From NCBI GenBank assembly GCA_963823615.1, contig CAWGMG010000017.1, positions 52,730 to 116,729 of the forward strand: 64,000 nucleotides of DNA, in the 5' to 3' direction. Within the stretch, counting starts at the first letter, position 1, and each line of letters starts with the position of its first letter. The translations under genes were made by a program, and so were the position numbers. Positions 8,125 through 60,429 of this stretch are shown piece by piece. The notes beneath the pieces were generated by a model. It worked only from the letters and a program-made list of their open reading frames with translations. It was not told the DNA's origin and searched no databases. The stretch comes from an uncultured Verrucomicrobiae bacterium. Lineage in GTDB: Bacteria; Verrucomicrobiota; Verrucomicrobiia; Chthoniobacterales; Chthoniobacteraceae.

Positions 8125-8246
8125 GTGGTCCGCTCAGTCCCGTGAGCGGCCCGGGGTGCATGGCGGACACGGAGGGGTCCTTCAGTAGGCGTCGGGTCTA
8201 GGGTCGAAGGGGCCGCCAGCCGGCCCGGCGAAAAGATGGTGGAAGA

Positions 8247-8289
8247 AAAAAGTGAAACATCTTTCCGATAGGGGTTGTGAGATTCGGTG
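8247..8289 (+). repeat. 43-nt module X (aaaagtgaaacatctttccgataggggttgtgagattcggtg); second copy at 19564-19605
   Basis: About 38/43 identity between the two copies; each lies ~300-390 nt upstream of a ctctgagacc repeat start. Confidence 0.7.
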
Positions 8290-8552
8290 CTGGAATGGGA
8301 GGGATGAAACCACCGGCTCTCCTCGATACGATTGGGAAGGCACGCAGGTTTGGAGTCCCGGCTTCAGCCGGCCGGGCGATCGCATCGCGGAGGTTGTCCG
8401 AAGATCCCGGCGCTCTTCGGGTGCCACATCTCGCCGCCCGAAGGCGGGACTCCGAACCTGGCCGCGCTTCGTGGGAGACGCGAAACGTGGCACTTCGTCC
8501 CGAAAGTGCTGCGCCCCGTGGTGCCTCCCGAGCCGCACTCTTTGCGCACTCA

Positions 8553-8585
8553 CTCTGAGACCCCGTTGCAGAATGTGCAACATCC
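8553..8585 (+). repeat. terminal repeat module ctctgagaccccgTTGCAgaatgTGCAAcatcc containing a TTGCA-N5-TGCAA inverted repeat; reverse copy at 50155-50189
   Basis: About 28/33 identity to the rc of 50155-50189 (cctctgagacccctTTGCAaaatgTGCAAaattcc); perfect 5-bp half-sites. Confidence 0.7.
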
Positions 8586-8624
8586 ATCCACGCATCGCTC
8601 GGCGGGCGGCGGGCGGCTATCCAA

Positions 8625-8650
8625 GTCTGACAGGTCTGACAGGTCTGACG
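8625..8650 (+). repeat. 3x tandem 9-mer GTCTGACAG (inverse copy CCGTCAGAC x3 at 35529-35561)
   Basis: gtctgacaggtctgacaggtctgacg; ~410 nt upstream of the ECF sigma gene. Confidence 0.7.
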
Positions 8651-9059
8651 TGGGCAAATTTCGCCAGCCTCCGACTCCAAACCGGTGCAAATCTGTAACA
8701 AATTGTAACGAAACTCCGGATTCCGCCCACCTCGGGCCGTTCAATTGAACATTCGCCGGCCTGAGCTGTCTCACTTTCTGCGCCTTGAGCCCTCCGAAGG
8801 GGCGCTTCATCCCATGACGATTTTCCTCCTCTCTCTCGCGGCTCTTGGCGGGGCGCTTTGGCTTCGTGAACTCGCGGCGGCGCAATGTGCGGCGCTCGTG
8901 CGGGTCCGGGTGCGGCGCGGCCATTTTCGTTCCTTGAAATCATGAGCTCGGCGACCTCGATCTTTCCCCGGCGGAATGGGTGAAGCGTTCTTTCCCTGGG
9001 GCGCGGCGCCCGAAACAGCTTCCCCACCTGCCGTCGCGCCTGTTACGAAGCCGCGCACG

Positions 9060-9641
9060 ATGGAAGACGCCGGCCGCAAGCTCGACGACGCGCTCGTCGC
9101 CCGCACCCAGGCAGGCGACTCGGTGGCGTTCGATGAGCTCGTGGTGAAGTATTCGCCGCGCCTCTACGGCCTCGTCTACAACATGACCTCGAACCACGAG
9201 GACACGAACGACCTGCTGCAGGATGTCTGGGCCAAGGCGTATCGCTCGATCAAGGGCTTCCGCATGCAGTCGAGCTTCTACACGTGGCTGCACTCGATCG
9301 CCGTCAACATGACGATCAACTTCCTGAAGAAGCGCGGCCGCCGGCACTCGGTGAGCCTCGATGACGTCGAGAGCGGGGTGCAGAACGACAAGGAGTTTCT
9401 CGAGCTCACCGCGACCACGAATCCGGTGCGCGAGGCGGATCTCGGCGAGCTGCAAAAGCGGCTGAACGAGGCGATGCTCAAGCTCTCGGTCGATCACCGC
9501 GCGGTCGTCACCATGTTCGACATCCAGGGGATGCCGCACGCGGAGATCGCGAAGATTCTTGAAGGTGTCCGAGGGGACGGTCCGTTCGCGGCTGTTCTAC
9601 GCGCATCGGCAGTTGCAAAATTTCCTGACTGAGTTTCACTA
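9060..9641 (+). CDS. ECF-type RNA polymerase sigma-70 factor (frameshift near C-terminus ~9570)
   Basis: Region 2 (LVVKYSPRLYGLVYNMTSNHEDTNDLLQDVWAKAYRSI) and region 4 (DHRAVVTMFDIQGMPHAEIAKIL). After a 1-nt shift the frame ends ..TVRSRLFYAHRQLQNFLTEFH*. Confidence 0.85.
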
Positions 9642-16779: not shown

Positions 16780-16924
16780 CAGAGACAATCAGACAATCAG
16801 ACAATCAGACAATCAGAGTTCCTAGCAGACGCGCGTCGGAACGATGGGGTGAGTTCGGAATGAACGTCACGTGCGCTGCACTCGTGCGGCGCCCCATTCT
16901 GATTGTCTGATTGTCCGATTGTCT
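16780..16924. repeat. inverted arrays of octamer CAGACAAT (4x, 16780-16817) and ATTGTC(T/C)G (3x, 16899-16924) flanking ~80 nt; long hairpin/cruciform potential
   Basis: cagagacaatcagacaatcagacaatcagacaatcagag ... ctgattgtctgattgtccgattgtct; lies between the hisS stop and the trx start. Confidence 0.7.
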
Positions 16925-19350: not shown

Positions 19351-19956
19351 GGCTGGGGATAGCCAGGAAAAGCCTACTTTCGCGAGGCGAATTGAGCCAG
19401 CCCAAATAACCCTTCGTGCGGCTTCCGAAGCGGCAGAGAACCGGCCGCAGGCAAGGTGCGGTTACCTGCATGAGGACCGCCGCGTGCGGGTGGCGGCTGA
19501 TGGCAGGGCTGCGAAGACCGCGCCCGCTCAGGCGTGACCCTGATTGCGAGCCGCCGGACGAAATAAAAGTGAAACACTTTTCCAATAGGAGTTGTGAGAA
19601 TCGGTGATTGAATCTTGGGGTGCTCACCGTGCCCTCATCCTCCCGGCAGGCTCAGAACCTCTGGCCCACCGCGGCAGCTGCGCAGTCGCCAAAGGCCCCT
19701 GAGCTTGCCGGCTGGGGAGTGCGTGCGCGGCCGCGCGGCCATGAATGCCGGGGGCCGAACCAGGGCCACGATCGATCGCAAACCGCTCCTGCCCGCGCAA
19801 GCGGCGGAGCACGCCAAACTCCACGCTGCTTCACGTGGTCCGCACAGTCCTCTGTGCGGTCGCCGCTTTCCGGGAAGATCGTCAGTGGCCGCGTTCGTTG
19901 TCTCTCGTTTGAAGCGGCTTCCCATAAAGCCGCGAAAGTCACGCTCGCCCACGCTT

Positions 19957-20590
19957 CCTCTGAGACCGATTCCCGAAATTCCCGAAATGCGCCCCCCACC
20001 ACTCAGCCGACGGCGTAAACTGTGCAAGCCTTCCCGAAACTCACCGCGCCTGCGTTTTTCCTCTGAGACCGATTCCCGTAATTCCCGAAATGCACCCACT
20101 CCCACCCGCTCAGCCGCGGCGAAAACCGTGCAATCCTTCCCGAAACTCCGCCGCGCCCGCGCTTTTCCTCTGAGACCGTTTCCCGTAATTCCCGAAATGC
20201 ACCCACTCCCACCCGCTCAGCCGCGGCGAAAACCGTGCAATCCTTCCCGAAACTCCGCCGCGCCCCGCGTTTCTCCTCTGAGACCGATTCCCGTAATTCC
20301 CGAAATGCACCCACTCCCACCACTCAGCCGGTGGCGAAAACCGTGCAATCCTTCCCGAAACTCCGCCGCGCCCCGCGTTTCTCCTCTGAGACCGATTCCC
20401 GTAATTCCCGAAATTCACCCGCTCCCACCACTCAGCCGGCGGCGAAAACCGTGCAATCCTTCCCGAAAATCCGCCGCGCCCGCGTTTTTCCTCTGAGACC
20501 GATTCCCGAAATTCCCGAAATTCACCCACTCCCACCATTCAGCCGGCGGCGAAAACCGTGCAATCCTTCCCGAAACTCGCCGGGCCAAAC
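19957..20590 (+). repeat. tandem array, 6 units of ~103-109 bp (unit starts ~19957, 20060, 20167, 20275, 20383, 20490)
   Basis: Unit cctctgagaccgattcccgtaattcccgaaatgcacccactcccacc..gcgaaaaccgtgcaatccttcccgaaactccgccgcgcc.. repeated with few substitutions; unit lengths are not multiples of 3. Confidence 0.9.
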
Positions 20591-20717
20591 CCGGTTGCCA
20601 ACCGCCTGTGATGCGGTAAAGTGCCCGCGCCCTTCAAGACACGCTTTCCTTCGACGTATTTTGCTAAGGCGCAACGCGTTCCCCGATTGACCTTCTGTAG
20701 AAAACACCCAGTCCCCC

Positions 20718-35476: not shown

Positions 35477-35528
35477 GGGTGGGTCTGTTTTGCAGGGCGG
35501 CGCCGCGCTGGTCGAGCGAAGAGACGGC

Positions 35529-35561
35529 CGTCGGACCCGTCAGACCCGTCAGACCCGTCGG
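35529..35561. repeat. 3x tandem 9-mer CCGTCAGAC (rc GTCTGACGG), in the intergenic region upstream of the PBP1A start
   Basis: cggacccgtcagacccgtcagacccgtcggac; same motif family as 8625-8650. Confidence 0.65.
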
Positions 35562-35566
35562 ACTCC

Positions 35567-36232
35567 TCAGAGCAAGTCCGGGCGCACGCGGCGCGTTTTC
35601 TCCAGCGCCTGCCGGCGGCGCCATTCGGCGATCGCCGCATGGTTGCCGGACATCAGGATGTCCGGGACGCGCCAGCCGCGAAATTCCACCGGGCGCGTGT
35701 AGTGCGGCGCTTCGAGCGAGCCGGCGGCGAACGACTCCTCCCGGTTCGACAGCTCGTTCCCAAGCACTCCGGGGATGAGCCGCACCACGCAATCGACGAA
35801 GATGAGCGCCGCGATCGCGCCATTCGTCAGGACGTAGTCGCCGATGGAAATCTCGTCATCGACCAGATGCTCGAGCACCCGCTGGTCGATCCCTTCATAG
35901 TGCCCGCAAAGGATGACCAAGTGTGTTTCGGACACGAACTGTTGGGCCAGCGCATGCGAGAGCGTCCGCCCGCCCGGCGACATGAGCACCACGCGGCTCG
36001 CCGGCGTCCGCAGCGCCTCGACCGCGGCGAAGATCGGCTCGCATTTCATCACCATCCCCTGCCCGCCGCCGTACGGCGTGTCGTCGGTGGTGCGGTGCTT
36101 GTCCGTCGCCCAGTCGCGGATGTTATGCGAGTGAAACTCCACGAGCCCCGCCGCCTGCGCGCGCTTCATCATACTCTCCTCGAGCGCGGACTCGGTGATC
36201 TTCGGGAAGAGGCTGAGGATGTCGATACGCAT
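35567..36232 (-). CDS. trmD: tRNA (guanine37-N1)-methyltransferase
   Basis: MRIDILSLFPKI..ILCGHYEGIDQRV..SIGDYVLTNGAIAALIFVD. Confidence 0.9.
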   Translation of the reverse strand: MRIDILSLFPKITESALEESMMKRAQAAGLVEFHSHNIRDWATDKHRTTDDTPYGGGQGMVMKCEPIFAAVEALRTPASRVVLMSPGGRTLSHALAQQFVSETHLVILCGHYEGIDQRVLEHLVDDEISIGDYVLTNGAIAALIFVDCVVRLIPGVLGNELSNREESFAAGSLEAPHYTRPVEFRGWRVPDILMSGNHAAIAEWRRRQALEKTRRVRPDLL

Positions 36233-47330: not shown

Positions 47331-47483
47331 GATGGGTAGCACAGGCGTCCCGCCTGTTCGGCTCGGCGTCCCGCCGAGTCGTCGACACGGCGCGTAGCAT
47401 TCACCAAATGGTGAGGACGAGCGCTTCGCGAGCCGCCGGGCGGGACGCCCGCCGGAACAGGCGGGACGCCTGTGCTACCCATC
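47331..47483. repeat. 153-bp nested palindromic element (29-bp perfect inverted repeat arms plus inner inverted repeats)
   Basis: gatgggtagcacaggcgtcccgcctgttc ... gaacaggcgggacgcctgtgctacccatc; inner ggcgtcccgcc/ggcgggacgcc and caccaaatggtg. Confidence 0.75.
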
Positions 47484-47559
47484 GTAGAGCCACGCGCGTT
47501 TTGCATAGTGCTTGGAAAAGCATGTCGAGCGTCAGAGCCGGCGGACTGGGCGAGCCTCC

Positions 47560-50067
47560 TCACATCTCTTCCGACTCCAGATCGACCAGGATTTCGCGCG
47601 GCTTGGCGCCTTCGCCGGGGCCGACGTAGCCGCGCATTTCCATGATGTCGAGGATGCGCGCGGCGCGCGTGTAGCCGAGCCGCAGCCGGCGCTGGAAGAG
47701 CGAGGTCGAGGCCTTCTTTTCCTGGCGCATGACCTCGTAGCATTTCTCCACGAGCTCCTCGTCCTCGGCGCTGACTTCCTCCTCTTCGTCCTCGCCGTCG
47801 CCTTCGAGCTTCTGATGGATGGCGCTCTCGAACTGCGGCTCGCCTTGCGCGGAAGCGTGCTCGACGACGCGGCGGACTTCGTCGTCGGAGACGAGCACGC
47901 CTTGCGCGCGGACCATGCGCGAGGTGCCCGGCGGCCGGTAGAGCATGTCGCCCATGCCGAGGAGCCGCTCGGCGCCGTTTTCATCGAGAATGACGCGCGA
48001 ATCGAGCGCCGACGCGACCTGGAAGGCGATGCGGCACGGGACGTTCGCCTTGATGACGCCGGTGATGACATCGGCGCGCGGCGTCTGCGTGGCGATGATC
48101 ATGTGGATGCCGGCGGCGCGCGCCTTTTGCGTGATGCGCGCGATGGCGCTCTCCACGTCGGCCGGCGCGGTCTGCATGAGGTCCGCCAACTCGTCGACGA
48201 TGATGACGATGTACGGCATCTGGTCGGGGACGATGAGGTCCATCTCGCGCGAGTTGCGCTGCTTGCCCATGTTCGTCACGCGCTCCTCGGAGGTGAGCGT
48301 CTCGGGGTCGACCGGCGCGGGTTCCACCGCCGGCGCGAGCGGGTCGAGCAGCGAGTCGTCGAAAAGCGCGGCCTGGCCCTTCTCGGCATCGAGCTCCTTT
48401 TGCGTCTTCGTCTTCGGCCGCGCGTTGAAGCCGCCGATATTGCGCACGCCCGTCTTGGCGAAAATGGCGTAGCGCTTTTCCATTTCATCGACCGCCCACT
48501 TCAGCGCGAGCAGCACCTTCTTCGGATCGGTGACGACCGGCACCACGAGGTGCGGCAGCGTATTGTACATCTGCATTTCGACCACCTTCGGGTCGATCAT
48601 GATGAAGCGCAGATCCTTCGGCGTGAACCGGTAGAGAATGGAGGAGATGATCGAGTTGATGCAGACGCTCTTGCCCGAGCCGGTGGTGCCGGCGACCAGG
48701 CCGTGCGGCATCGCGGCGAGATCGGCGATGATCGTCTTGCCGTAGACGTCCTTGCCGAGCGCGATCGGGATTTTGCACTTGGTCGAGTGAAATTCCTCGC
48801 TCTCCAGCAGCTCGCGAAAGGCGACCTTCTGCTTCTTGCAGGTTGGCGATCTCGATGCCGACGGTGTCCTTGCCGGGGATCGGCGCGAGGATGTTGATCC
48901 GCTCGGCGCGGGTGGCGCGCGCGATGTCGCGCTCGAGCGCGGTGATGCGATCGACGCGGACGCCCTTCGCCGGGTAGACCTCGTAGCGCGTGATGGTCGG
49001 GCCGCGCGTGATGTCGCCCGCGCGAGACCTCGATGCCAAACTGCGCGAGCGTCTCGATGATGACGACCTGCAGCGCCTTCAGCTCCTCCGGGATCGGCCG
49101 CCTGCCGGCTCGCGAGATCGAGCGGGTCGAGCAGATCGAACGACGGCATGCACGTAGTTCTCGCAGTCGACGCTCGCGAGGGTCGGGCGTCTCCTCGGGC
49201 TTCTCGCGCTTGATCCGCGGGAGCGGCGGCACGCTGGCATCGAAGATGACCGGCTCCGGCCGCGCCGGCTCGAGCGGGCTCCGCCGGTGCGTCGACCGGC
49301 GCGGGGATGACGAGCGTCTCCGCCTCGGCCTCGGGCGAACCGACGCGCACGGTGTTTTTCTTGAGCCGCTCCTTCGCTTCCTTCGCCGTCGGCGGCGTCA
49401 GCGCGCGCAGCTTCAGCGCCTCCTCCCTCGCCTTCGCCGCCGCGCGGGCTTCGCGCCAGGCGTGGACGCGCTCCGGCACGCTGCCGGCATACGCCAGGCT
49501 GCGCCGCAGGAGCGACACGGGCTGCAAGCCGGTCAGCAGCACGAGGCTGATGACGTAGAGCAGCGTGCAAATGATGAGCCCGCCGATGTGGCCGACGACC
49601 GCGTGCAGGAAATCGCCCGCGATCCATTTCCCGAGCCACCCGCCCTCGCCCGGCAGCCCGAGCCGGCGCGCATCGAGCACCGACCACGGCAGCAGATGGA
49701 GCAGGCAGGCGCCCGCGACGACGAAGACCGCCGCCCAGACCGCGCGCATGGAGAGCCGGAGGCTCGGCGAGAGCAGCTTGGCCCCGCCGCACCCGAGCAG
49801 GATCGCGGTGAAGAGATAAGAGGCCGCCCCGAGCAGCGAATACGACAGGCAGGCCATGATGGCCCCGAACGGCCCGATGAAGTTGCTGGAAACCCGCGCC
49901 GACCGCGCCACCGAGGCGAGCGGGAACCACGTGGGGACATCGTTCGGGGCGTAAGAGACGAGCGAGAGGAAGAGGAGGGTCCCGATGCCGAGCAGCACCA
50001 GGGCGACGACTTCGCTGTAGATGTGGTGCTCGCGGATGCGGGCGAGAGAGGTCTTGGAGGTCGCCAT
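47560..50067 (-). CDS. ftsK: DNA translocase FtsK/SpoIIIE (multiple internal frameshifts ~48480-49060)
   Basis: N-terminal TMs MATSKTSLARIREHHIYSEVVALVLLGIGTLLFL..; Walker A LVAGTTGSGKSVCIN; ..MIIATQTPRADVITG..; gamma domain RRLRLGYTRAARILDIME; middle part spread over 3 frames. Confidence 0.85.
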   Translation of the reverse strand: MATSKTSLARIREHHIYSEVVALVLLGIGTLLFLSLVSYAPNDVPTWFPLASVARSARVSSNFIGPFGAIMACLSYSLLGAASYLFTAILLGCGGAKLLSPSLRLSMRAVWAAVFVVAGACLLHLLPWSVLDARRLGLPGEGGWLGKWIAGDFLHAVVGHIGGLIICTLLYVISLVLLTGLQPVSLLRRSLAYAGSVPERVHAWREARAAAKAREEALKLRALTPPTAKEAKERLKKNTVRVGSPEAEAETLVIPAPVDAPAEPARAGAAGAGHLRCQRAAAPADQAREARGDARPSRASTARTTCMPSFDLLDPLDLASRQAADPGGAEGAAGRHHRDARAVWHRGLARATSRAARPSRATRSTRRRASASIASPRSSATSRAPPAPSGSTSSRRSPARTPSASRSPTCKKQKVAFRELLESEEFHSTKCKIPIALGKDVYGKTIIADLAAMPHGLVAGTTGSGKSVCINSIISSILYRFTPKDLRFIMIDPKVVEMQMYNTLPHLVVPVVTDPKKVLLALKWAVDEMEKRYAIFAKTGVRNIGGFNARPKTKTQKELDAEKGQAALFDDSLLDPLAPAVEPAPVDPETLTSEERVTNMGKQRNSREMDLIVPDQMPYIVIIVDELADLMQTAPADVESAIARITQKARAAGIHMIIATQTPRADVITGVIKANVPCRIAFQVASALDSRVILDENGAERLLGMGDMLYRPPGTSRMVRAQGVLVSDDEVRRVVEHASAQGEPQFESAIHQKLEGDGEDEEEEVSAEDEELVEKCYEVMRQEKKASTSLFQRRLRLGYTRAARILDIMEMRGYVGPGEGAKPREILVDLESEEM

Positions 50068-50180
50068 ACGTGTCTTCGGCGGGGAGTTATTCACAATTGT
50101 GAGCGAGGTTGGCGAGCAGGAAGCGCGAGACAGAAATGCCGCCGGCGGCTGAGGGGAATTTTGCACATTTTGCAAAGGGG

Positions 50181-50414
50181 TCTCAGAGGAAGAGCGGGCG
50201 CCGTGGCGCCGGAGGCCCTGAGCGTGGCGAAGGTGCCGCAGGCCCTGAGCCGGTCGAAGGGTTTCGGGAAGGTTTGCGCAGTTTCGCGGGACGCTGGACG
50301 AGGCATTTCGGGAATTTCGGGAATCGCGCTCAGAGTAAGTGAAGGAGCCGGCGAGAGGAGGCTGAGGCGAGGTTTCGGGAAGGAATGCGCAGTTTTCACG
50401 GGAGTGGCTGGGCG
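50181..50414 (-). repeat. tandem repeat array (same family as 19957-20590, inverse orientation), part 1: ~2 units ending at the intron 3' junction
   Basis: rc units ..cgaaatgcctcgYccagc..gaaaactgcgcattccttcccgaaac..; terminal palindrome module at 50155-50189. Confidence 0.85.
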
Positions 50415-52498
50415 AGGCATTTCGGTAGAGTAGGCGGGAAGCGACGGATTGAGAGGCACACGGCCAATGACCGTCTGCTTCCCGCCCCTCATCAAACCGG
50501 ACAGGCGGTTTTCCCGCATCCGGCTTTCCGAGTTCCATTCTCGAAAAGCGCTGTCTCATGTGCATGGGGTCGGCATTTTGTAGAGCCCGTATTGCGTGAA
50601 GAGTTCCCGATTTGCCCAGCGTTTGTATTTGCCACAGGGATTGCCGTGCTTGCGCCATAACCACTGCCGGAGGCGGTGGGCCACGAAGGTATTCAGTTGC
50701 CCGAAGCTCCGATGGTACTGGGCGAGGGCAAAGAAATTGCCCCAGCCACGGGTCACTTGGTTGATTTCACGCACGACTTCCTCGGTCGCTCTCCACACGG
50801 AGCGCGCGTGGGTTAGCTCGCGCACCCGGTCGCGGAGCGCCTGCCCCTCGGCGGGCTCGGGGCCTTGAGCTTGTCGAAACGGCTCCGCTTCCGGGCTGGG
50901 CTCGATGTGCACGTACGCCGTCTTCTTCTTGGATTGTTGCCAGCGGAAGCTGAAGCCGAGGAACTCAAAACCGCTTTCACGGCTCTGGAGCACTTCGGTT
51001 TTCTTCTCGTTGAGGGCCAGGCCGCGGCTTTGCAGCCAGCGGGCCAGCCGCTCCTTCATGCCCGCTCCTTGCCCGGTTCCGCAGAGGATGACCAGATCGT
51101 CCGCAAAGCGGACCATCCACGGCTTTTGCCGGCACTGTTCATTGACCCCTTCATCCAGCGGATGCAGGTAAATGTTGGCCAGCAGGGGCGAGATGACGCC
51201 TCCCTGCGGTGCGCCGCAGGGGTTGGCCTTCATCTTCCGCCCGCCGCCTTTCTCCTCCTCCATCACCGGGGCGCGCAGCCATCCTTTGATGAGCTGGAGG
51301 ATCGTCCCGTCCCTCACCCGCCGCGCCACCAGCCGCAGCAGTTTCCCGTGCGGGATCGTGTCGAAGTACTGCGCCAGATCGGCGTCCACTACCGAGGAGG
51401 CGGAGGGGACAAGGGAGGTTGCAGGGCGGGCGAGCCCTTCGGTGCGGCCACTGCGCAGCCCCTGCCGGATCGCCTCCACCGCCCCGTGCGCTCCACGCCC
51501 GGGCCGATAGCCGAAGGAGAGCGGATGGAAGTCCGCCTCGAAAATCGGCATCAGCACCAAGGACACGGCCATCTGCACCACGCGATCCTTCACCGTCGGG
51601 ATGCCCAACCGGCGCACCCCTCCATCGGGCTTCGCGATCTCCGCCCGGAGCACTGGCGCCGGCCGGTACGTCTTGGCGCGCAACTCCTCCCGCAGCGCCT
51701 CCAGCCACGCCACTTCCTTTTCCTGATCTGCCGCAAGGTCCGCAATCTCCACTCCAGCAACCCCCGCGACCCCGCCATGGGCCTTCACGCGCCGCCACGC
51801 TGTCTCCAGCACATCGGCGCGCTGCACCTCTCCATACAGACTCCAGAACCGGGAGCCCGGACTGGACTTCGCTTTCCGATACAGCGTGATTTGCAACTGC
51901 CGAACCTTTTTGGGTGCTGGTAGCTCCTGCGAGCCGTCACCACGGCTCGCCCGGGACCCTGCCGCCACTTGTCCCGTGCGCCGCCGCCTCGGTCCTTCGT
52001 TGCGCTTCACTTCTGCGGAACAAGTGGCGTCCCTTTGCTCCCCCATGTTTTCTCCGAACCAGAGGTCCAGCATGGGATCAACGCTACTACGAACGCCTCC
52101 GACTTCTGCCGTGGCCGCACGGCCTCCCTCTTTCGGAGAGGTTGGGCCGCTTGTTGAGTCAGGTTTACTCGCCATGGCAGATCTCCCCGTTTACCCGCAC
52201 ATCACTTCGCGACATGTCGTCCACGCCGACCCCGCCGGTCTAATATCCCCACCCGCGACGGTTGGTCTGGGTGCGGACTCTTCGGCCTTCGCCCAAATTC
52301 CAGGGGCTCGGCTGCCGGGAGTATCCTTTCGAGGCTCATTTATGTGGTTCATATGGTTATTACGACCTGCCGGTTCGACTCCATGCCTGCTCCCCACCCC
52401 GCCTCGCGGCGACGCAGTTGGCACGGTCTTCGGTGCTGAACCGTCTAAGTGCACCGGCGGGACTTGCACCCGCGTTGATGTGCGCTTTGCGGGCGCAC
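50415..52498 (-). mobile_element. group II intron (2084 nt) with intact RT/maturase ORF
   Basis: 5' end GUGCGCCCG (rc of 52490-52498); domain V aaGCCGGAugCGGgaaaaCCGccugUCCGGuu (rc of 50481-50516); domain VI GGGCGGGAAGC..GCUUCCCGCC then ..uacucuac 3' end at 50415; IEP ORF lies between. Confidence 0.85.
50556..52175 (-). CDS. group II intron-encoded reverse transcriptase/maturase (true start probably at an internal Met, ~52046-52073)
   Basis: RT0-RT7 motifs: ..VLETAWRRVKAHGGVAGVAGV.., IAKPDGGVRRLGIPTVKDRVVQ, FADDLVIL (YADD variant); maturase/X domain; C-terminus GNPCGKYKRWANREL. Confidence 0.85.
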   Translation of the reverse strand: MASKPDSTSGPTSPKEGGRAATAEVGGVRSSVDPMLDLWFGENMGEQRDATCSAEVKRNEGPRRRRTGQVAAGSRASRGDGSQELPAPKKVRQLQITLYRKAKSSPGSRFWSLYGEVQRADVLETAWRRVKAHGGVAGVAGVEIADLAADQEKEVAWLEALREELRAKTYRPAPVLRAEIAKPDGGVRRLGIPTVKDRVVQMAVSLVLMPIFEADFHPLSFGYRPGRGAHGAVEAIRQGLRSGRTEGLARPATSLVPSASSVVDADLAQYFDTIPHGKLLRLVARRVRDGTILQLIKGWLRAPVMEEEKGGGRKMKANPCGAPQGGVISPLLANIYLHPLDEGVNEQCRQKPWMVRFADDLVILCGTGQGAGMKERLARWLQSRGLALNEKKTEVLQSRESGFEFLGFSFRWQQSKKKTAYVHIEPSPEAEPFRQAQGPEPAEGQALRDRVRELTHARSVWRATEEVVREINQVTRGWGNFFALAQYHRSFGQLNTFVAHRLRQWLWRKHGNPCGKYKRWANRELFTQYGLYKMPTPCT

Positions 52499-53210
52499 GG
52501 AATTACGGGAATCGGTCTCAGAGTAAATGAGGGAGCCGGGTGAGCCGGAGGCCCTGAACCTGTCGAAGGGTTTCGGGAAGGAACGCGCAGTTTTCGCGGG
52601 ACGCGTGGGCGTGAATTTCGGTAATTTCGGGAATCGCGTTCAGAGTAAATGAGGGAGCCGGTGAGCCGGAGGCCCTGAGCCTGTCGAAGGGTTTCGGGAA
52701 GGATTGCGCAGTTTCGCGGGACGCGTGGGCGTGAATTTCGGTAATTTCGGGAATCGCGTTCAGAGTAAATGAGGGAGCCGGTGAGCCGGAGGCCCTGAGC
52801 CTGTCGAAGGGTTTCGGGAAGGTTTGCGCAGTTTTCGCGGGACGCGTGGGCGTGAATTTCGGTAATTTCGGGAATCGGGCTCAGAGTAAATGAGGGAGCC
52901 GGTGAGCCGGAGGCCGTGAGCCTGTCGAAGGGTTTCGGGAAGGTTTGCGCAGTTTTCGCCGGTTCCGGTCGTCCCATTCTTCCCCTGCTTCCCGTCCCCG
53001 CGCCCGGTCCGCGACCAATTTCGGTAATTATGGGAATCACCCTCAGAGCGAATGAGCAGATACGGAGGGTAGTTTCGGAACAGATTGCGCAGTTTCGCGG
53101 GAAAGATGGCAGCGCGAGTTTCGGTAAGTGTGGGAATCGCCCTGAGAGTGAATGAAGGACGCGGAGTGGCATTTCGGGAAGGATTGCGCGGTTTCGCGAG
53201 ACGGCGGCCC
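52499..53210 (-). repeat. tandem repeat array part 2: ~4 near-identical 120-121 bp units (starts 52499, ~52613, ~52733, ~52854) then ~2-3 degenerate units
   Basis: Unit gaatttcggtaatttcgggaatcgcgttcagagtaaatgagggagccggtgagccggaggccctgagcctgtcgaagggtttcgggaagg(a/t)ttgcgcagttt(t)cgcgggacgcgtgggcgt. Confidence 0.9.
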
Positions 53211-53685
53211 GCGGATGCGGGAATGTGGCAAGCGGTTCGACCGATCGTGCGGCACAAGCGGTGCCCTCCCGGGAACGCCAATCTCGCGATTGGCGCAGCT
53301 GGCGGTTCACGCAGCTGGCGGTTCAAGGAGTCGGGGCGCCCTCGCCCCGAGTTTCTGGCCCGCGCCGCGCTGCGGGCCGCGGCGGCCGCGACTCGCCAGC
53401 GGAAGATTGGCGTTCCGAGGGGGCGCCTTGCGCAGCGCGCGCCCGACCCGCGGCGGCAGTGACACCGCTGGGTCGGAGACGGGGGTGAAGTGGCGAGCGG
53501 CCCAATGCGCATTCCGCCATGCTACCACAGGTTCTCGAATTCTGTGTTCCATACACGAAGATGTTGTGAGCGCCTGCGTGGGAGCCAATTTTTGCCTACT
53601 CGAGACTCGCGTCATCGTCGTGTTCCACAACTACTCTCACGTTTTCGACATTTTCGGCAAGCGGCTCCGTGAAGGGCCCCACAAA

Positions 53686-53773
53686 GGGTGGAACCGCCAA
53701 GACGCCAAGGCGCCAGGAAAAGCTGATGGATCGTGGTCTTCCTTGGCGTCTTGGCGTCCTGGCGGTTCCACCC
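53686..53773. repeat. ~32-bp imperfect inverted repeat (about 29/32 pairing) with 23-nt loop; strong hairpin
   Basis: gggtggaaccgccaagacgccaaggcgccagg ... ccttggcgtcttggcgtcctggcggttccaccc. Confidence 0.7.
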
Positions 53774-53962
53774 TTTTGATTCCGGCTCTGTCGGGGTTAG
53801 GCATCTCGGTGCAGCGACCTGAACAGCCAACGAAATGACTCGAATTGAAACGAATGGTTTGCAGCCTTCCGTATTCGATTCAATTCGGCGTGATTCGTTG
53901 GCCCTCGCGCTTGCCTTCACTGGCAGACTCAGGCTCAATCCCAGCCACCTCCGGGACCGCTC

Positions 53963-56928
53963 ATGGCATATCGTTTCGATGTCGCATTCTCCTTCGCCGG
54001 CCCTCACCGCGAGAAGGTGCGGGCCATCGCCGAGCTTGTCGCGGCGAAGCTCGGGAAGAAGCGCGTTTTCTTCGACGAGTGGTACCGAGCGGAAATCCTC
54101 GGGGGGAATATGCGCGTGCTGCTCCAGCGTATCTATGGAGAGAAAAGTCTCATGGTTGTCGCGGATCTTTCGCAAGACTACGCCGATCGGCCTTGGAGTC
54201 AGGGCGAAAGCGAGGCCATCGATGCTCTGCGGATGCGAATCGACTCGGCGCGCGACGAGACCGCGCGCCTGCGGGTGTTCATCGTGCGCTTCGGTCCCGG
54301 CGAGGTGCCTGGCGTCTTGGAAAACACCGGCTGGCTCGATGGCGCAGCCCTCTCCGTGGAAGAAATCGCCGGCGCGATTTTGGAGCGACTCGACCTGCTC
54401 AATGAACGCATGGGCGAAAGCGCCACCCCTGCCCCGCCACCGCCGGTCCCCTTGGCTCCCTCTCTTCCAGCGTCCCCCTCTTCCGCTCCGCCGATCCTCT
54501 TCTTTCACCCCGCTACCAACGACGCCCTCTACTCCCGGCGCGAGCGCGAGTTGGACTGGCTCGACGAGTGCGCGAAAAATCCCGCAATCCGCATCGCCAC
54601 CGTCACCGGCGTCGGTGGGCTGGGGAAGACCTCGCTCGTCGGGCATTGGATCGAGAAGGCGCGCGGCTGGCAGCATCGCGCCTTTCACGGCGTGTTCTTC
54701 TACAGCTTCTATTCCGATCGCGACCCGAAGCATTTCTTCGCGGCGTTCCTCCAATTCGTCTGCGAGCAGGAGAAGATCGAGGCCCTTCCTCCGGATCGTC
54801 CGCTCCATCATCTTGCGGCCGCAGCGGTGCGCAAGTGGTGCTACCTCGTGGTGCTCGATCGGCTCGAGGTGCTCCAGCACGACGAAAGCGATCCGCACTA
54901 CGGCTGGATCAACGACGGCGCGCTCAATGAATTCGTCGCGCGCGCCGGGGCGGCGGGGCCTTCGCTGCTCGTGCTCACCAGCCGCTTCCCCTTCCCGGAA
55001 GTCACGCGCGAGCATCCCGAGGCCGCCCGCGCGTGCGAGCTGCCCCTGCTTACCGACGACGAAGGCGCCGACCTGCTCGCCCATTGCGGTCTCGACGGCG
55101 GGCGGGAGAAGCTGCGCGGCTACAGCCATCAATTTGGCGGGCATCCGCTCGCGCTGCGGCTCTTTGCCGGCGCGTGCCTCGCGCAGCCCTTCGATGAACC
55201 GGAGACGGTGAGCCGGCACTTGCTCGCGGCAGGTGCGGAGGCGGGCGAAGAGGACGCGCATCGCCGGCAGTTCCGCAAGCTGCTGCTCTGGCTGCAAAAG
55301 AAACTCCCCGTAGAAAAGCGCCGACTGCTCCAGCTCGTCGCGCTCTTTCGCGAGCCGGTGCCCACAGCCACGCTCGCCGCGCTCGCCACGGGGCTCGATG
55401 CGATGAAGGCGGACTTCGGCGATTGCGACGCTGCGCGTCTCCTTTTCCTCCTTGATGCCCTGGTGCGTGATCAGTTTACTCCAGCGCGAGGAAGCGCCCG
55501 GCAGCGACACCGCCCGCTGGGCGGCGCATCCCATTGTGCGCGAGGTCTTCCGCGTCGAGGCACTGGCGTCTGGCGACACGGTCGCGCAGCAGTTTGCCGG
55601 GATCGTCGCGGGAAAGGGGGCGGGCCGCGCGCCCCGGAGCGTGGCGGAATTGCAGCCGATTCTGGAGGCGATCGAGTTGCTCCTCGCTGCGGGGGATTTC
55701 AAGTCGGCCGATGAGGTGTATCGCGGGCGGTTGGAGAATGGTGACGTATTCAAATGGATTCCCGCCCCGCATGAGGGGCTGCATTGCGCGCGGGGATTCA
55801 TCGAGCCGCAGGAACGTCGCGCAACGCTGGAGCAATTGGTCGGGCGGGAAGCGACAGCGCGCTACTTCAACGCTGTGGCGGGTCTTGGAAGCATTGTTGG
55901 CGAAATGGACCGGGTGGAGAGCCTGTATATTGAAATGCGCTACCTCTACACGGTCGAGTGCAATTGGAACGCCATCTCCGGTAGTTTCCAAAGCCTCGCG
56001 GCGGTTCAAACACTTCGCGGGATGCTGCGAGAGGCGGTCGCGCGCGCGAACGAGGCTCTCGCTTTTTGCGGGATCCAAGCAGTGAGGACATCTTGGAACG
56101 TCCCGCCCCTCCATCCAACGGACAAGCTGAACATTTTGATCGATAAAGATTTAAACTGCACTTCCCTCGCATACCGGGCAAACGCGCTTTCACTCGCGGG
56201 GGAATTGCCCGCCGCCGGTCGTGACTTTGCTTCGTCCGATACGCTCCAGCGCTTGGGTCACCGCGAAAACGTCGCACTTCACTCGCTCCGGGGCATCCAG
56301 TGGTGCCGCCATTGTCTGCGCCTCGGCGAGGCGGACGGCGCCCGCCGCCTCGCTGAGGCAAATTGGAGCGATCTGCGCGCGGAATCAATGGACCGCCGAC
56401 CTCGCCGCGTGCGACCTCCTCCTCGGTGAACTCGATTTCGCAGCGGGCGACCGCGATTCCGCCGAACAACGAATCGGCGCGGCCGTGCGGATCTTTCGCG
56501 AGGCCCGGCAGGGGATGGACCTCCCTGACGCGCTGCTCGCGCAGGCGCGGCTGCGGGGGAGCATTGAGGATTGCGAAGAGGCGCTGCGGCTCGCGGCCCG
56601 GAGCGGCTTTGCGCTGAAGCAGTGCGACGCCCTGAATCTCCGCGCCCGTCTCCGGCGTGAGGCCGGCCAGCCCGCCGACGCCGCCAAGGATGCCCGCGAC
56701 GCGCTCGATATCGCCGAGCGGTGCGGCTACTACTGGGGCCGGCATGAAGCCTTGCGCCAGCTTCGCGATGTCGCGAAGGCGCTCGGGAATCGCGCGGATG
56801 AGAGGCATTGGGACGAAGCCGAAAAGGCGCTGGCTGCGCGCATGAAGCCGGAGGTCGAAGAGGCGCTGCGGATCAATCGCGAGCACGATGCGGAAATGGA
56901 GCGGCTTTACGGAAGGCCGAAGCCGTAG
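53963..56928 (+). CDS. TIR - NB-ARC (STAND P-loop NTPase) - TPR protein, NLR-like; split over 3 frames (shifts ~55440 and ~56250)
   Basis: TIR: FDVAFSFAGPHREKVRAIAELVAAKL..VFFDEW..SLMVVADLSQDYADRPWSQGESEAI (conserved Glu present). P-loop IATVTGVGGLGKTSLV; hhhhD LVVLDRLE; LLVLTSRF; C-terminal TPR-like repeats to ..ERLYGRPKP. Confidence 0.7.
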
Positions 56929-57223
56929 CATAGGCAACCCTGGACCAAATGCGGACCGGTCGCTGCAATGGCGCCCACTCTATGTCAACAATTTGGGTTC
57001 GGCCATCGGCGCATCCAGGTAGCCCTGCCCGCGCCGGCACGGGCGACGTGACGATTCACGTGCTGTAACTCCGGAGCTTGGCGCCGCTCGCTTCCGCACC
57101 AACGCCCGGGAGGGGTGCGCCAGGCGGTGGAAAGGGCGGAGTTGTCATCGCGCACGGGGCGGCTCAGACTCATCGCGGTTCCCTGGGGGCACATCGGGGT
57201 CAGGCGACATTTCTTGACAGACC

Positions 57224-57229
57224 GGGCGG
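57224..57229 (+). promoter_or_regulatory. TTGACA -35-like hexamer ~30 nt upstream of transposase ATG (duplicated at 58809-58814)
   Basis: gggcacatcggggtcaggcgacatttcTTGACAgaccgggcgggttttcgtgaaatcgtcgcATG; whole ~75-nt block duplicated at 58775-58846. Confidence 0.35.
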
Positions 57230-57248
57230 GTTTTCGTGAAATCGTCGC

Positions 57249-58337
57249 ATGCCTCGCAGCTTGCGCATCCAGTACCCCGGCGCGTTTTATCACGTCATGG
57301 CGCGGGGCAATGGACGGGCGGATATCTTTCGCGGCGATGCGGACCGGACGCTTTTTCTCCGCACGCTCGGCGAAGCCTGTGGGCGGACCGGCTGGCGCGT
57401 GCACGCCTGGGTGCTGATGCGCAATCACTACCATGTGGTGCTGGAAACGCCGGAGCCGAATCTGGTCGAGGGGATGCAGTGGCTGCAGAATGCTTACACG
57501 CGGCGCTTCAACACGCGGCACCGCGGCTGGGGCCGGTTATTCGGCGACCGCTACAAGGCGGTGCCCGTGGAGGGGGAAGGGTACTACTACGAGACGCTGC
57601 TGAAATCGCGGGCGCATCACGCGCGCAGTCCGAATACCGTGGAGGGGGAAGGGTACTACTACGAGACGCTGCTGGATTACGTCCACCTGAACCCGGCGCG
57701 CGCGGGGTTGATTCCGATGGCCAGCGGCGGAAGTCTGCGCGACTACCCGTGGAGCAGCGTGGCGGCCGGATACGCGCTGCCGCCGGGGCGCCGGGCGAAA
57801 TGGCTCGCGGTGGAGGACGGCCTGGCGAGCTTTGGCTGCGGCGATACGGCGGCTGGCCGCCGCAGTTTTGTCGCGCGGCTCGATGTGCGCGCTCTGGAGG
57901 AGCCGCGAGCCAAGACGGGCTTGCCGGCGCTCGATCCGGAGCGTGACCGGCGGAGGAGCACGCTGGCGGACGGCTGGTACTGGGGGAGCCAAGCCTTCGC
58001 GGAGCGTCTGCTGGCGCTGGGGGAAGCAGTGATCGGACGTCCCGGGCACCGATCCGCGCGGAGTACGCAGGAGAAGCGCGCGCATGGCGAACTGGTCGCC
58101 CGCGAGCTACTCGAGGAAGGGCTCCGCCGGGCGAAGCTGACCCGTGAAGAGCTCCCCGCTCTTCCTGGGAGCGATCTGCGCAAAGTGGCGCTCGCCAGCG
58201 CGATCTGGGAGCAAACCATTGTGAGCATGGCATGGCTGGCGGAGCATCTGGCGATGCGGAGCGCGGCCAATGCGAGCCAGCAAATTCGCCGCTACCGGCT
58301 GGCCCAGGCCAAGCCGCTGTCAAGAAATGTCGCCTGA
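57249..58337 (+). CDS. IS200/IS605-family Y1 (HUH) transposase, RAYT-like N-domain fused to DnaA-C-terminal-like HTH domain
   Basis: AFYHVMARGNGRADIF..HAWVLMRNHYHVVLETPEPNLVEGMQWLQNAYTRRFN (HuH = HYH; catalytic Tyr in NAYTRRFN); C-terminus SDLRKVALASAIWEQTIVSMAWLAEHLAMRSAANASQQIRRYR resembles DnaA domain IV; internal 36-bp perfect direct repeat 57567-57602 / 57639-57674. Confidence 0.75.
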   Translation: MPRSLRIQYPGAFYHVMARGNGRADIFRGDADRTLFLRTLGEACGRTGWRVHAWVLMRNHYHVVLETPEPNLVEGMQWLQNAYTRRFNTRHRGWGRLFGDRYKAVPVEGEGYYYETLLKSRAHHARSPNTVEGEGYYYETLLDYVHLNPARAGLIPMASGGSLRDYPWSSVAAGYALPPGRRAKWLAVEDGLASFGCGDTAAGRRSFVARLDVRALEEPRAKTGLPALDPERDRRRSTLADGWYWGSQAFAERLLALGEAVIGRPGHRSARSTQEKRAHGELVARELLEEGLRRAKLTREELPALPGSDLRKVALASAIWEQTIVSMAWLAEHLAMRSAANASQQIRRYRLAQAKPLSRNVA

Positions 58338-58481
58338 CCCCTATGTTTAAGTGACCCCTATGTTTAAGTTCCCATCTCGCTATTTAAAACACCCGATGTC
58401 TGGCTCGTCGCCGGCGTCGCTTATGGTATCGCGACAGGTGAGAACGACGCTTTTACGGGCGAGGCATTATCAAAGCCATTT

Positions 58482-58673
58482 TTGCTGCCTTCGATCCCTG
58501 GAATAGCAGCCCCAGCTCAGAATGCGACGCCCCCAGAGACTCCACGATCAAGCCTATCGGCAGTCGGAACACCCGCTTCCATCGTTAAAGACCAAACGCG
58601 TAAGTGGCCGTGGGTGGTTGGAATACTCGGCTTGCTATCGCTCTTCGCGCTGGCTCTGAGACGCCGCGCCTAG
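58482..58673 (+). CDS. small secreted protein with PEP-CTERM-like tail (WPW-TM-RRR)
   Basis: ..KWPWVVGILGLLSLFALALRRRA*; lies in a locally AT-richer stretch. Confidence 0.3.
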   Translation: MLPSIPGIAAPAQNATPPETPRSSLSAVGTPASIVKDQTRKWPWVVGILGLLSLFALALRRRA

Positions 58674-58715
58674 CGTCGGCACGCACCCGGCCGGCCGTTT
58701 CCATATTACTGGGGG

Positions 58716-58797
58716 GCACATGGGGGTCAGCACATGGGGGTCAGCACATGGGGGTCAGCACATGGGGGTCAGCACATGGGTCAGCACATGGGGGTCA
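58716..58797 (+). repeat. tandem 14-bp repeat cacatgggggtcag x~6, an amplification of a unit present once at 57199-57212
   Basis: cacatgggggtcagcacatgggggtcagcacatgggggtcagcacatgggggtcagcacatgggtcagcacatgggggtcag. Confidence 0.85.
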
Positions 58798-58843
58798 GGC
58801 GACATTTCTTGACAGGCCGGGTGGGTTTTCGTGAAATCGTCGC

Positions 58844-58905
58844 ATGCCTCGCAGCTTGCGCATCCAGTACGCCGGCGCGTTTTATCACGTCATGGCGCGG
58901 GGCAC
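58844..58905 (+). pseudogene. truncated duplicate of the transposase 5' end (first ~20 codons plus promoter block)
   Basis: MPRSLRIQYAGAFYHVMARG identical/near-identical to 57249-57308, then diverges into the antisense 3' end of the HK gene. Confidence 0.6.
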
Positions 58906-58949
58906 TGCCTCGACACCTACTCGTAAACTCAGCCGCGGGCGCGCCCGGT

Positions 58950-60179: not shown

Positions 60180-60219
60180 GGAATTATGCAATTGGCGCGC
60201 GCGCGATGCCCGTAACACA

Positions 60220-60338
60220 GGCTTCCAGCCTGTGCGGCTCGCGGGCTTCCAGCCCGTCGAAGGAACTCACCGGTCGCTGAGTCCGGCGGCGGCGGCTTCG
60301 GCAGGCTGGAAGCCCGCCGGACGCACAGGCTGGAAGCC
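60220..60338. promoter_or_regulatory. four copies of 11-bp near-palindrome GGCTTCCAGCC (2 direct at 60220 and 60244; 2 inverted at 60304 and 60328) upstream of the HK gene
   Basis: caggcttccagcctg .. gggcttccagccc .. aggctggaagccc .. aggctggaagccc. Confidence 0.45.
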
Positions 60339-60429
60339 CGGGTTACGATGGCGCCGCGTCCCTCGATTTGCATACATGAAGATGATGAGGATGGCTTCGT
60401 GTTCACGCGCAATGTGATCCGTCGCGGCA

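Follow-up and report, generated by a model that had tools for sequence, protein, structure and literature searches.

A modular non-coding repeat family with a conserved head, upstream of native promoters in Chthoniobacteraceae-like Verrucomicrobia

Why should a bacterial chromosome keep the same short block of DNA ahead of two unrelated genes, each time with a repeat start a few hundred nucleotides further on? The question is raised by a 64,000-nt stretch of contig CAWGMG010000017.1 (assembly GCA_963823615.1, an uncultured Verrucomicrobiae bacterium), which we refer to as the window and in which an earlier note had singled out this block, module X. We find that X heads a family of composite repeats that is non-coding, modular, previously undescribed and restricted to Chthoniobacteraceae-like Verrucomicrobia. 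As to what the family does, the reading we lean towards, tentatively and from sequence comparison, is that of a cis-regulatory cassette acting on downstream transcription. As we would describe it, a member has X as its head, in one of two subtypes, then a variable body that collects hairpins resembling repetitive extragenic palindromes (REPs), then tandem units made of an A-box and a B-box, and in some members a tail of a C-box and a B′-box; each A-box would consist of a constant anchor, CTCTGAGACC, and two tandem 9-mers. The window has a G+C content of 65%, and its genes, which include those for DUF1549/DUF1553 and DUF1501 proteins and for an extracytoplasmic function (ECF) sigma factor, are of the usual verrucomicrobial kind; the nearest named homologues of its ECF sigma factor are from Chthoniobacteraceae. 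To our knowledge these abundant soil bacteria of the Verrucomicrobia have almost no characterised regulatory DNA, and literature searches on promoter motifs of Verrucomicrobia and on repeats of Chthoniobacter turned up nothing of relevance.

The pair of X copies is real: the motif lies exactly at 8248-8289 and again at 19565-19606 with 37 of 42 positions identical, against an expectation of 0 in shuffled sequence. A nhmmer profile of the two recovers them with E values of 2e-17 and 2e-19 and detects no third copy in the window (next best match, E about 10). The full conserved block is longer than had been noted: the first copy spans about 8226-8306 and runs to an ATG (8304), the second about 19545-19622 and runs to a GTG (19620). 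We call the first element, upstream of an ECF sigma operon, locus A (about 8226-8717), the second, upstream of a DUF1549 gene, locus B (from 19545 on), and a third array, upstream of ftsK, locus C. Outside the window X was sought by exact degenerate pattern, in two large collection scans that miss diverged copies, and was found in at least five genomes or metagenomes besides the window genome: five copies (L001-L005) in the Chthoniobacteraceae metagenome-assembled genome (MAG) SMAG_U4275, one in MFD01213.bin.2.184, two in JGI metagenome contigs (L007, L008) and one in a Logan contig (L017). Ten copies (two from the window and L001-L008, L006 being a MAG copy) were aligned, and L017 supplied an orthologous eleventh; of the window genome itself the analysis covered the window.

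The alignment, which draws on at least five genomes or metagenomes, contains 40 invariant columns and yields a consensus of 75-80 nt, (GGGCGAAAATTTTGTGAAAG)AAAAAGTGAAACACTTTTCCAATAGGGGTTGTGAGAWTCGGTGnTnnAATnnnGGG(A/G)TG, with ATG or GTG at its end. X is AT-rich (G+C fraction 0.46-0.48 vs 0.65). Its two subtypes, of which type 1 ends in GGTGCTGGAATGGGAGGGATGA and type 2 in GGTGATTGAATCTTGGGGTGAAC, are both present in the window genome and in the Chthoniobacteraceae MAG. Between the window and L017, X is identical at 54 of 55 positions (98%), compared with 92% for the whole coding sequence, 81.5% for third codon positions, 87% for the native upstream region and 84% for the body, which also has 72 gapped positions. 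With identity at 81.5%, the binomial probability of at least 54 matches out of 55 is estimated at about 2e-4. These identities place X under constraint, barring frequent gene conversion among copies. For the Q, C and B′ modules described below, identity between the window and its ortholog L015 is about 80%, vs 93% at third positions of the sigma gene, and on this comparison the modules evolve faster than X.

The note had seen X and the arrays as one scaffold with conserved ends, and this part of its proposal stands: A- and B-box units follow X by 263-778 nt in 8 of the 9 evaluable loci in the window and other genomes, and in the window the repeat start CTCTGAGACC follows at 8553 (305 nt from the X start) and at 19958 (393 nt). 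The structured RNA gene and the zero-unit form that went with it are not supported, as described below. The exception among the nine evaluable loci is L004, in which a real gene starts at the X ATG. Head and units are coupled, with type-1 X accompanied by Q units in 4/4 cases (locus A, L001, L002, L005) and type-2 X by P units in 4/4 (locus B, L003, L006, L007; one-sided Fisher p about 0.014). In all nine independent loci the element points at the next gene, and these genes are varied: the ECF sigma operon, DUF1549 genes (twice), ftsK, parA, a terS-like gene, the genes for a 3-keto-disaccharide hydrolase and enolase, and a 536-aa open reading frame (ORF). The distance from element end to start codon is 85-150 nt. 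Elements measure 0.5-1.2 kb, with 1 to about 8 units of 100-160 nt and two boxes each, and the C/B′ tail is found in locus A, L001, L002, L003 and L015.

Orthologous loci indicate how the element relates to the genes it precedes. Many relatives have a conserved ECF sigma operon (small ORF, sigma factor, anti-sigma factor, HtrA-like protease). At six orthologous ECF loci (L009, with 90% protein identity, and five further relatives) X is missing, and L009, though without X, keeps both the small ORF and an ECF-type promoter, AATTGAACAT-N-GTCT. L015 is 89% identical in DNA, with homology to locus A beginning at 8520, and has the same C-box, B′-box, small ORF and ECF-type promoter, with at least two Q units vs one in the window; the words of its B′-box have drifted, from TGTAACAAAT TGTAAC in the window to TGTAACATAA TGTATC. 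At locus B, L017 (from a relative, protein 93% identical) starts inside a type-2 X and has a homologous body with one P unit vs six in the window. L018 and L019 (85-89%) are without the element, and their homology with the window starts at 20580. The promoter of the DUF1549 gene (TTGCCA/TTGCAA, 16 nt, TAAAGT/TACAGT/TAAACT) is kept in all four of these sequences. Because relatives without the element keep the promoters, we regard the element as an addition upstream of native promoters, with an unstable number of units. Viewed as insertion sites, L018, L019 and L009 are empty and the right junction falls at about 20580; left-flank synteny is broken and the junction pair is not comparable. By these sequence comparisons relatives gain or lose the element as a single block. 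That arrays expand, as the note had supposed, is seen in the differing unit numbers at both fixed loci; presumably the number shifts by unequal recombination or slippage.

At the right junction of locus B we also observed a likeness between the B- and B′-boxes ((G/C)AAAACCGTGCAATCC; 8677-8693 in locus A) and the native DUF1549 promoter in its -35 region (CCAAACCGGTTGCAA, within 20580-20600), and a AAACCGGTTGCAA-like motif marks this junction. The likeness could point to a site of recombination or to where the B-box came from.

The units themselves are of two types. P units, 103-108 nt long, run from an A-box, CTCTGAGACCGATTCCCGWAATTCCCGAAAT(T/G)CAC, through a variable stretch to a B-box, GCGAAAAC(C/T)G(T/C)GCAATCCTTCCCGAAAC, and a second variable stretch. 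Q units have the A-box CTCTGAGACCCCTTTGCAAAATGTGCAAAATTCAG and form tandem arrays in L005 (three), L001 (at least two) and L015 (two). Units of one array are 93-96% alike. The two kinds of A-box have the anchor and the following TTCA in common and differ only in the 18-nt pair of 9-mers; the 9-10-mer pairs of the B′-boxes likewise vary by locus (TGTAACAAAT TGTAACGAAAC; GTATCATAAT GTATCGAAAG; GTTCGGAAA GTCCGGAAA). Locus A, which had been read as X plus a terminal module only (8247-8585) and thus as a zero-unit version of the scaffold, turns out to be a Q-type member of one unit, flanked on either side by extra modules: a B-box, a pre-A box, a 9-mer micro-array, a C-box and a B′-box bring the element to about 8226-8717. 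Its B, pre-A, Q-type A, C and B′ boxes recur in L001, L002, L003 and L015, and its body contains a REP-like inverted repeat (8345-8372/8433-8460).

The terminal module of the note is the Q-type A-box. It does contain a perfect inverted repeat, TTGCA-N5-TGCAA, in both window copies, and the window has exactly two such repeats (8566-8580 and 50161-50175) vs 0.02 expected. A reverse copy of the module does end the array before ftsK, at 50154-50188 (8545-8583 is 85% complementary to 50158-50196). The proposal that the palindrome is the operator of a dimeric regulator fares less well, since its arms are not conserved over ten Q copies: L001 (twice) has TGTGCA and L015 has TGGCA as the left arm, and L002 and L015 have TGCAT as the right arm. 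What is conserved is a tandem direct pair of 9-mers. Because the arms drift and the two 9-mers of L002 change in parallel, with the same A-to-T change in both (TTTGCATAA TGTGCATAA), we take the direct pair to be the Q unit; the palindrome arises because TGCA is self-complementary.

The third array runs on the minus strand from about 53210 to 50154 and stops about 85 nt before the ftsK ATG (50069). It has eight A-boxes, seven of P type followed by a last one of Q type, and a group II intron splits it. The profile search found no significant X upstream of it, and a site at about 53650 (minus) is X-like by eye only. The intron, which is complete, begins with GTGCG at 52498, matches Rfam family RF00029 at 50425-50528, and is inserted exactly between TTCC and CGAAA in the second 9-mer of a P-type A-box; when its flanks are joined, the A-box is perfect. 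Possibly the repeat unit serves as a homing target, and the sense orientation of the intron is as one would expect were the array strand transcribed. Table 1 lists the features of the three loci.

Table 1. Features of the three window loci and of the native signals beside them. Positions are those of the window.
Feature	Position	Strand	Basis or remark
X head, A/T-rich, CGGCGAAAAGATGGTGGAAGAA (GGGCGAAAATTTTGTGAAAGAAAAAGG in most other copies)	8226-8247	+	10-copy alignment
Module X core, type 1, AAAAGTGAAACATCTTTCCGATAGGGGTTGTGAGATTCGGTG	8248-8289	+	invariant columns of the 10-copy alignment
Type-1-specific 3′ end of X, CTGGAATGGGAGGGATG, to conserved ATG (8304-8306)	8290-8306	+	X alignment
Variable body of locus A, homologous to L001 body	8307-8479	+	comparison with L001
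Degenerate B-box, GCGAAACGTGGCACTTCGTCCCGAAAG	8480-8506	+	compared with P-unit B-boxes and L001
Pre-A ("D") box before Q-type A-boxes, GGTGCCTCCCGAGCCGCACTCTTTGCGCACTCA	8517-8552	+	alignment of Q-type A-box regions
Q-type A-box: CTCTGAGACC + two tandem 9-mers	8553-8587	+	Q alignment
Micro-array, (GTCTGACAG) x 2.8	8625-8649	+	absent from ortholog L015
C-box, near-palindrome, GGGCAAATTTCGCCA	8652-8666	+	follows last A-box also in L001, L002, L003, L015
B′-box tail: CCAAACCGGTGCAAATC + tandem words TGTAACAAAT TGTAACGAAAC, then TCC	8677-8717	+	recurs in relatives
Native ECF-type promoter, TTGAAC-17-GTCT, outside element	8745-8771	+	kept in relatives without element
43-aa hydrophobic small ORF, outside element, conserved	8814-8945	+	precedes/overlaps ECF sigma gene (8976-9632)
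Module X, type 2, ending in GGTGATTGAATCTTGGGGTG	19545-19622	+	compared with orthologous copy in L017
Locus B body, including degenerate B-box (about 19909-19939)	19623-19954	+	compared with L017
P-type array, 5.9 copies x 107 nt: A-box (CTCTGAGACCGATTCCCGWAATTCCCGAAAT), variable stretch, B-box (GCGAAAACCGTGCAATCCTTCCCGAAAC)	19955-20586	+	93% matches
Native sigma-70-type promoter, TTGCCA-16-TAAAGT, of DUF1549/DUF1553 gene (start 20718), outside element	20595-20622	+	
Third array, upstream part: P-type A-boxes at 53148, 53048, 52886, 52765, 52645, 52523	52499-53210	-	
Group II intron, sense within a P-type A-box, GATTCCCGTAATTCC^CGAAATGCC	50425-52498	-	reverse transcriptase/maturase ORF 50556-52175
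Third array, downstream part: rest of split unit, P unit (A-box 50335), final Q-type A-box (50188 down to 50154)	50154-50424	-	

How might such an element act? In the cis-regulatory reading it would act on the gene downstream as a portable auxiliary promoter or an upstream regulatory cassette; action on or through transcription is suggested because the strandedness is strict, the elements lie beside promoters and the head is AT-rich. X would supply an A/T tract that resembles, by eye, an UP element, together with an extended -10-like word, TGTGAGAWT, about 20 nt before the ATG or GTG. This word (TGTGAGATT, 8276-8284, in locus A) matches the pattern TGnTATAAT at the TG, A-11, A-9 and T-7, and the A/T tract sits at UP-element distance from it. 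The Q-type A-box would supply a second promoter-like site, CTGAGA-17-CAWAAT, which matches the sigma-70 consensus at 4+4 of 12 positions (in locus A, CTGAGA at 8555-8560 and CAACAT at 8578-8583). The 9-mers, as candidate protein-binding words, would overlie the spacer and -10 as an operator would. In a simple sigma-70 weight-matrix scan, Q-type A-boxes rank first or second among the sense-strand sites of Q-bearing leaders, scoring 6-11 where native promoters score 12-13. The ORF that follows the X ATG at locus A is not conserved as protein. In L004 a real terS-like gene begins at the X ATG, with a half-X (TTTGTGAAAATCCGTGCTTGCATGGTGGGATG) ahead of the ATG of a divergent xis/AlpA-like ORF; because of these two starts, the 3′ half of X would appear to serve as a start-proximal expression signal there. 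We note that the surrounding region (L004, 3341-6186) is prophage-like, with a PIN-domain gene, the xis/AlpA-like ORF, X, the terS-like ORF and a large terminase (phrog_2), and that X occupies its divergent control region.

Several observations weigh against promoter-like action. X has no recognisable -35 element, a consensus scan reports no promoter in it, and it scores poorly as a sigma-70 promoter, whereas this lineage's native promoters are of canonical form and have higher scores. In the weight-matrix scan, noise on the antisense strand attains Q-like scores, and P-type A-boxes are without an A at -11 (CGAAAT). About 75 contiguous near-invariant bases are more than a promoter normally constrains, and the conservation of X could in part reflect gene conversion among copies. 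The genes already have promoters of their own, so the element may regulate in some other way or be selfish. Finally, the family sample comprises about 11 loci from exact-pattern scans, which pass over diverged copies. As for other sigma factors, X was compared by eye with sigma-54, sigma-28, sigma-32, ECF and SigB/F-type consensus promoters, and in each case spacing or key bases fail. TTGTGA is not a general promoter word in the window, where its 16 occurrences equal the chance expectation.

The rival that survives best, though we think it rather doubtful, is that the family is selfish, non-autonomous mobile or duplicative DNA without host function, akin to BOX elements or to MITEs (miniature transposable elements with inverted repeats), with a preference for insertion upstream of promoters and arrays grown by slippage. 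Presence/absence polymorphism at two orthologous loci and multiple copies within genomes are what it would lead one to expect, but in three full elements searched for MITE-type terminal inverted repeats no pair running from end to end is common to loci, and with left-flank synteny broken no target-site duplication is identifiable. The window does encode an IS200-like Y1 transposase of the REP-associated tyrosine transposase (RAYT) type; yet the repeats flanking it differ from X, P and Q, and no transposase adjoins any copy examined. Unstable unit number, fast-evolving bodies and inter-box spacers, and contigs that break inside X or arrays (L007, L008, L015, L017) also fit mobile DNA. Neither the orientation toward the gene in 9/9 loci nor the far better conservation of orthologous X than of synonymous sites does, the latter being unexpected for mobility unless gene conversion is frequent.

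An unlikely alternative, again framed on sequence features, is that the array is transcribed from X and that an RNA-binding protein recognises its unstructured words (UUCCCGAAA, three in each P unit; UKUGCAAAA, two in each Q unit), the array serving either as a long regulatory 5′ leader or as a CsrB-like sponge RNA that titrates the protein. The array end lacks the terminator that a discrete sponge RNA would need and no promoter consensus was found in X, although the strict strandedness (9/9), the predicted single-strandedness of the conserved boxes, the at least 18 copies of one 9-mer in locus B, the absence of a terminator-like site between X and the gene and the sense-oriented group II intron would all be in keeping with a transcribed array. 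A broader version, which strikes us as quite unlikely, would have the X-headed array launch transcription through unstructured words of variable copy number that titrate or recruit a dedicated RNA- or DNA-binding protein, with array length tuning dosage and with two co-evolving systems, X1-Q and X2-P. Its words would be the anchor, CTCTGAGACC or GAAAACCGTGCAATCC, and then a locus-specific 9-10-mer pair (TTCCCGAAA, TKTGCAAAA, TGTAACRAA, GTATCRWAA or GTYCGGAAA).

We consider it very unlikely that the element is instead a protein-binding array at the DNA level (of recombinase, partition or packaging sites, for example), with X as a platform of the att, pac or parS kind and iteron-like 9-mer pairs. 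The approximately 75 contiguous invariant bases would suit a multi-protein platform and the tandem direct words recall iterons, but the words drift between orthologs, as in the B′-box of L015, and such an array need not be co-oriented with genes, yet all nine are. The X of L004 lies between xis-like and terminase genes, the usual place of att or pac sites; no match was found, however, in viral contigs, in 50,697 INPHARED phage records or in PLSDB plasmids. Two loci precede parA and ftsK, but GTGAAACA within X makes up only half of a canonical parS.

The reading of the note, a structured RNA gene of about 340 nt ending in a dimeric operator, is scarcely credible: although the palindrome is perfect in both window copies, beyond chance, and 8230-8600 folds at z = -3.6, the fold signal comes from the REP-like inverted repeat in the variable body, the palindrome arms drift while the direct 9-mer register is kept, the interior between X and the module cannot be aligned between loci A and B, and neither X nor the units have covariation, a consensus structure or a relevant Rfam family. 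Specifically, RNAalifold gave -6 kcal/mol for ten X copies and -1.6 kcal/mol for ten P units, each with 0 compensatory pairs; folds of the X 3′ end in individual copies ranged from z = -1.8 to +1.3 relative to shuffles; and Rfam searches at gathering and permissive E-value thresholds returned only the group II intron and chance miRNA-like matches. A hairpin between the G-rich/ATG end of X and a downstream C/U-rich tract, plausible by eye in L002, gave no consistent signal. Type-specific pairing between X and units was rejected as well (RNAduplex vs shuffles, |z| < 2.5), an 8-nt X2/P complementarity being broken in L006.

Two further candidates were set aside. A CRISPR array would have an AT-rich head such as X, but the inter-box segments repeat from unit to unit, leaving no unique spacers. 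Coding function fails because units of 103-108 nt break the frame; the ORF after the ATG or GTG shows 6 non-synonymous and 2 synonymous changes between the window and L017 (counted by eye), and Pfam finds nothing.

Among known systems, the closest in plan are the BOX elements of pneumococci (boxA-boxB(n)-boxC) and the mosaic elements found between genes in Neisseria (NIMEs). Like BOX, the X family is composite, intergenic and multi-copy, with conserved end modules and variable tandem middle modules, and just as the BOX module number varies between strains at a locus, orthologous X loci have 6 vs 1 or 1 vs at least 2 units. BOX elements have terminal inverted repeats resembling ISSpn2 and fold into a tight stem-loop, and boxA and boxC can stimulate downstream genes (PMC3049150). 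The X family differs in having no common terminal inverted repeats and no consensus fold, in its greater length (0.5-1.2 kb) and in its strict orientation toward the gene; phylum and base composition also differ, and homology is not expected. NIMEs consist of dRS3 repeats alternating with RS blocks; these variable blocks are of 50-150 bp, and NIMEs are dynamic in length between strains, lie beside ordinary genes and are targets of mobile DNA (PMC1797815). The X family likewise alternates conserved boxes with variable blocks in dynamic arrays and is a target of mobile DNA, as the intron in an A-box attests. However, dRS3 is a 20-bp inverted repeat, ATTCCC-N8-GGGAAT, whereas X-family boxes carry direct 9-mer pairs; NIMEs are without an X-like head and no strict orientation is reported for them; and their RS blocks come from many families, whereas X-family units of one array are near-identical. 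Since it lacks terminal inverted repeats and a fold, has box repeats that are direct and not inverted, and carries a conserved head, the X family is, on these sequence criteria, a composite intergenic repeat of the BOX/NIME kind but a member of neither.

Two other comparisons are more distant. Correia elements are reported to generate functional promoters (cited in PMC3049150). As promoter-carrying repeats of this type are, the X family is multi-copy, non-coding and located upstream of unrelated genes; X and Q have -10- and -35-like matches, and X abuts real starts in L004. The X family differs in that its promoter activity is a supposition, it has no terminal inverted repeats, and X is without a -35. 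REPs and bacterial interspersed mosaic elements (BIMEs), with their RAYTs, resemble the X family as mosaic extragenic repeats, and the window has both a Y1 transposase with flanking arrays and REP-like hairpins in element bodies. But REPs and BIMEs are palindromic and usually 3′ of genes, whereas X and the A- and B-boxes are non-palindromic, directly repeated and 5′ of genes, and the RAYT-flanking repeats are unrelated to them in sequence.

Whichever reading prevails, the family offers a testable object: a head of 75-80 nt under purifying selection, two head/unit pairings and arrays of variable length, upstream of the conserved native promoters of housekeeping genes (eno, ftsK, parA and an envelope-stress ECF operon). 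Should the element modulate transcription, it would exemplify a portable cassette that adds regulatory input, with repeat number as the means of tuning; should it be selfish, it would represent a new route, independent of terminal inverted repeats, by which non-coding DNA reaches sites upstream of promoters in a fixed orientation. Repeats of this family also break short-read assemblies, and several contigs stop inside them. One locus carries an odd label: L006 lies on a 542-kb contig (CAWCZF010000004.1) annotated as "uncultured Actinomycetota", a bin label that looks wrong given that this contig carries module X along with a P-type array and genes of the DUF1549/DUF1501 type.

Some features of the neighbouring genes deserve mention. 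Relative to L015, the ECF sigma gene has single-base insertions at about 8962 and 9558 (its 5′ end and region 4), which truncate the N-terminus and shift the C-terminal frame, and the Pfam match to region 4 is partial. In ftsK (47560-50069, minus strand) the N-terminus and motor domain share one frame and the middle (DITRGPTITRYEVYPAKG..., ORF 48485-49039) is in another, the two frame changes implying either a pseudogene or assembly indel errors. Together, the frame changes in the two genes suggest homopolymer errors of long-read sequencing, and with single-base indels present relative to a close relative, differences of 107 vs 108 nt between units may include assembly error. Diverging from the third array is a gene (53963-55714, plus strand) for a 583-aa protein with weak Pfam matches to TIR and NACHT/AAA (STAND-like) domains, possibly an antiphage defence gene.

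Direct repeats of 124 nt (57189-57312 and 58784-58907, 96% identical) flank the RAYT-like gene (57249-58337), with short tandem arrays, (TGACCCCTATGTTTAAG)x2 and (GCACATGGGGGTCA)x6, nearby; 57189-58907 may be a REPIN-RAYT system. Short tandem repeats of 8-9-mers seem recurrent in the window genome. The array (CCGTCAGAC)x4.9 at 35528-35571 is the reverse complement of the 9-mer GTCTGAC(A/G)G repeated at 8625-8649 in locus A, and two octamer arrays, (AGACAATC)x4.4 at 16783-16817 and its reverse complement (TCTGATTG)x3.4 at 16898-16924, form an inverted pair with about 80 nt between them. The first of these recurs in L003 (2409-2442), at the 3′ end of the parA ORF (1631-2482). The window also has GC-rich REP-like palindromes of several families (8125-8149, 47331-47509, 53683-53776 and 60211-60347), two of which are common to the Chthoniobacteraceae MAG: 47331-47509 is about 90% identical to L004 7837-7999, and 8125-8149 is 96% identical to L004 136-160.

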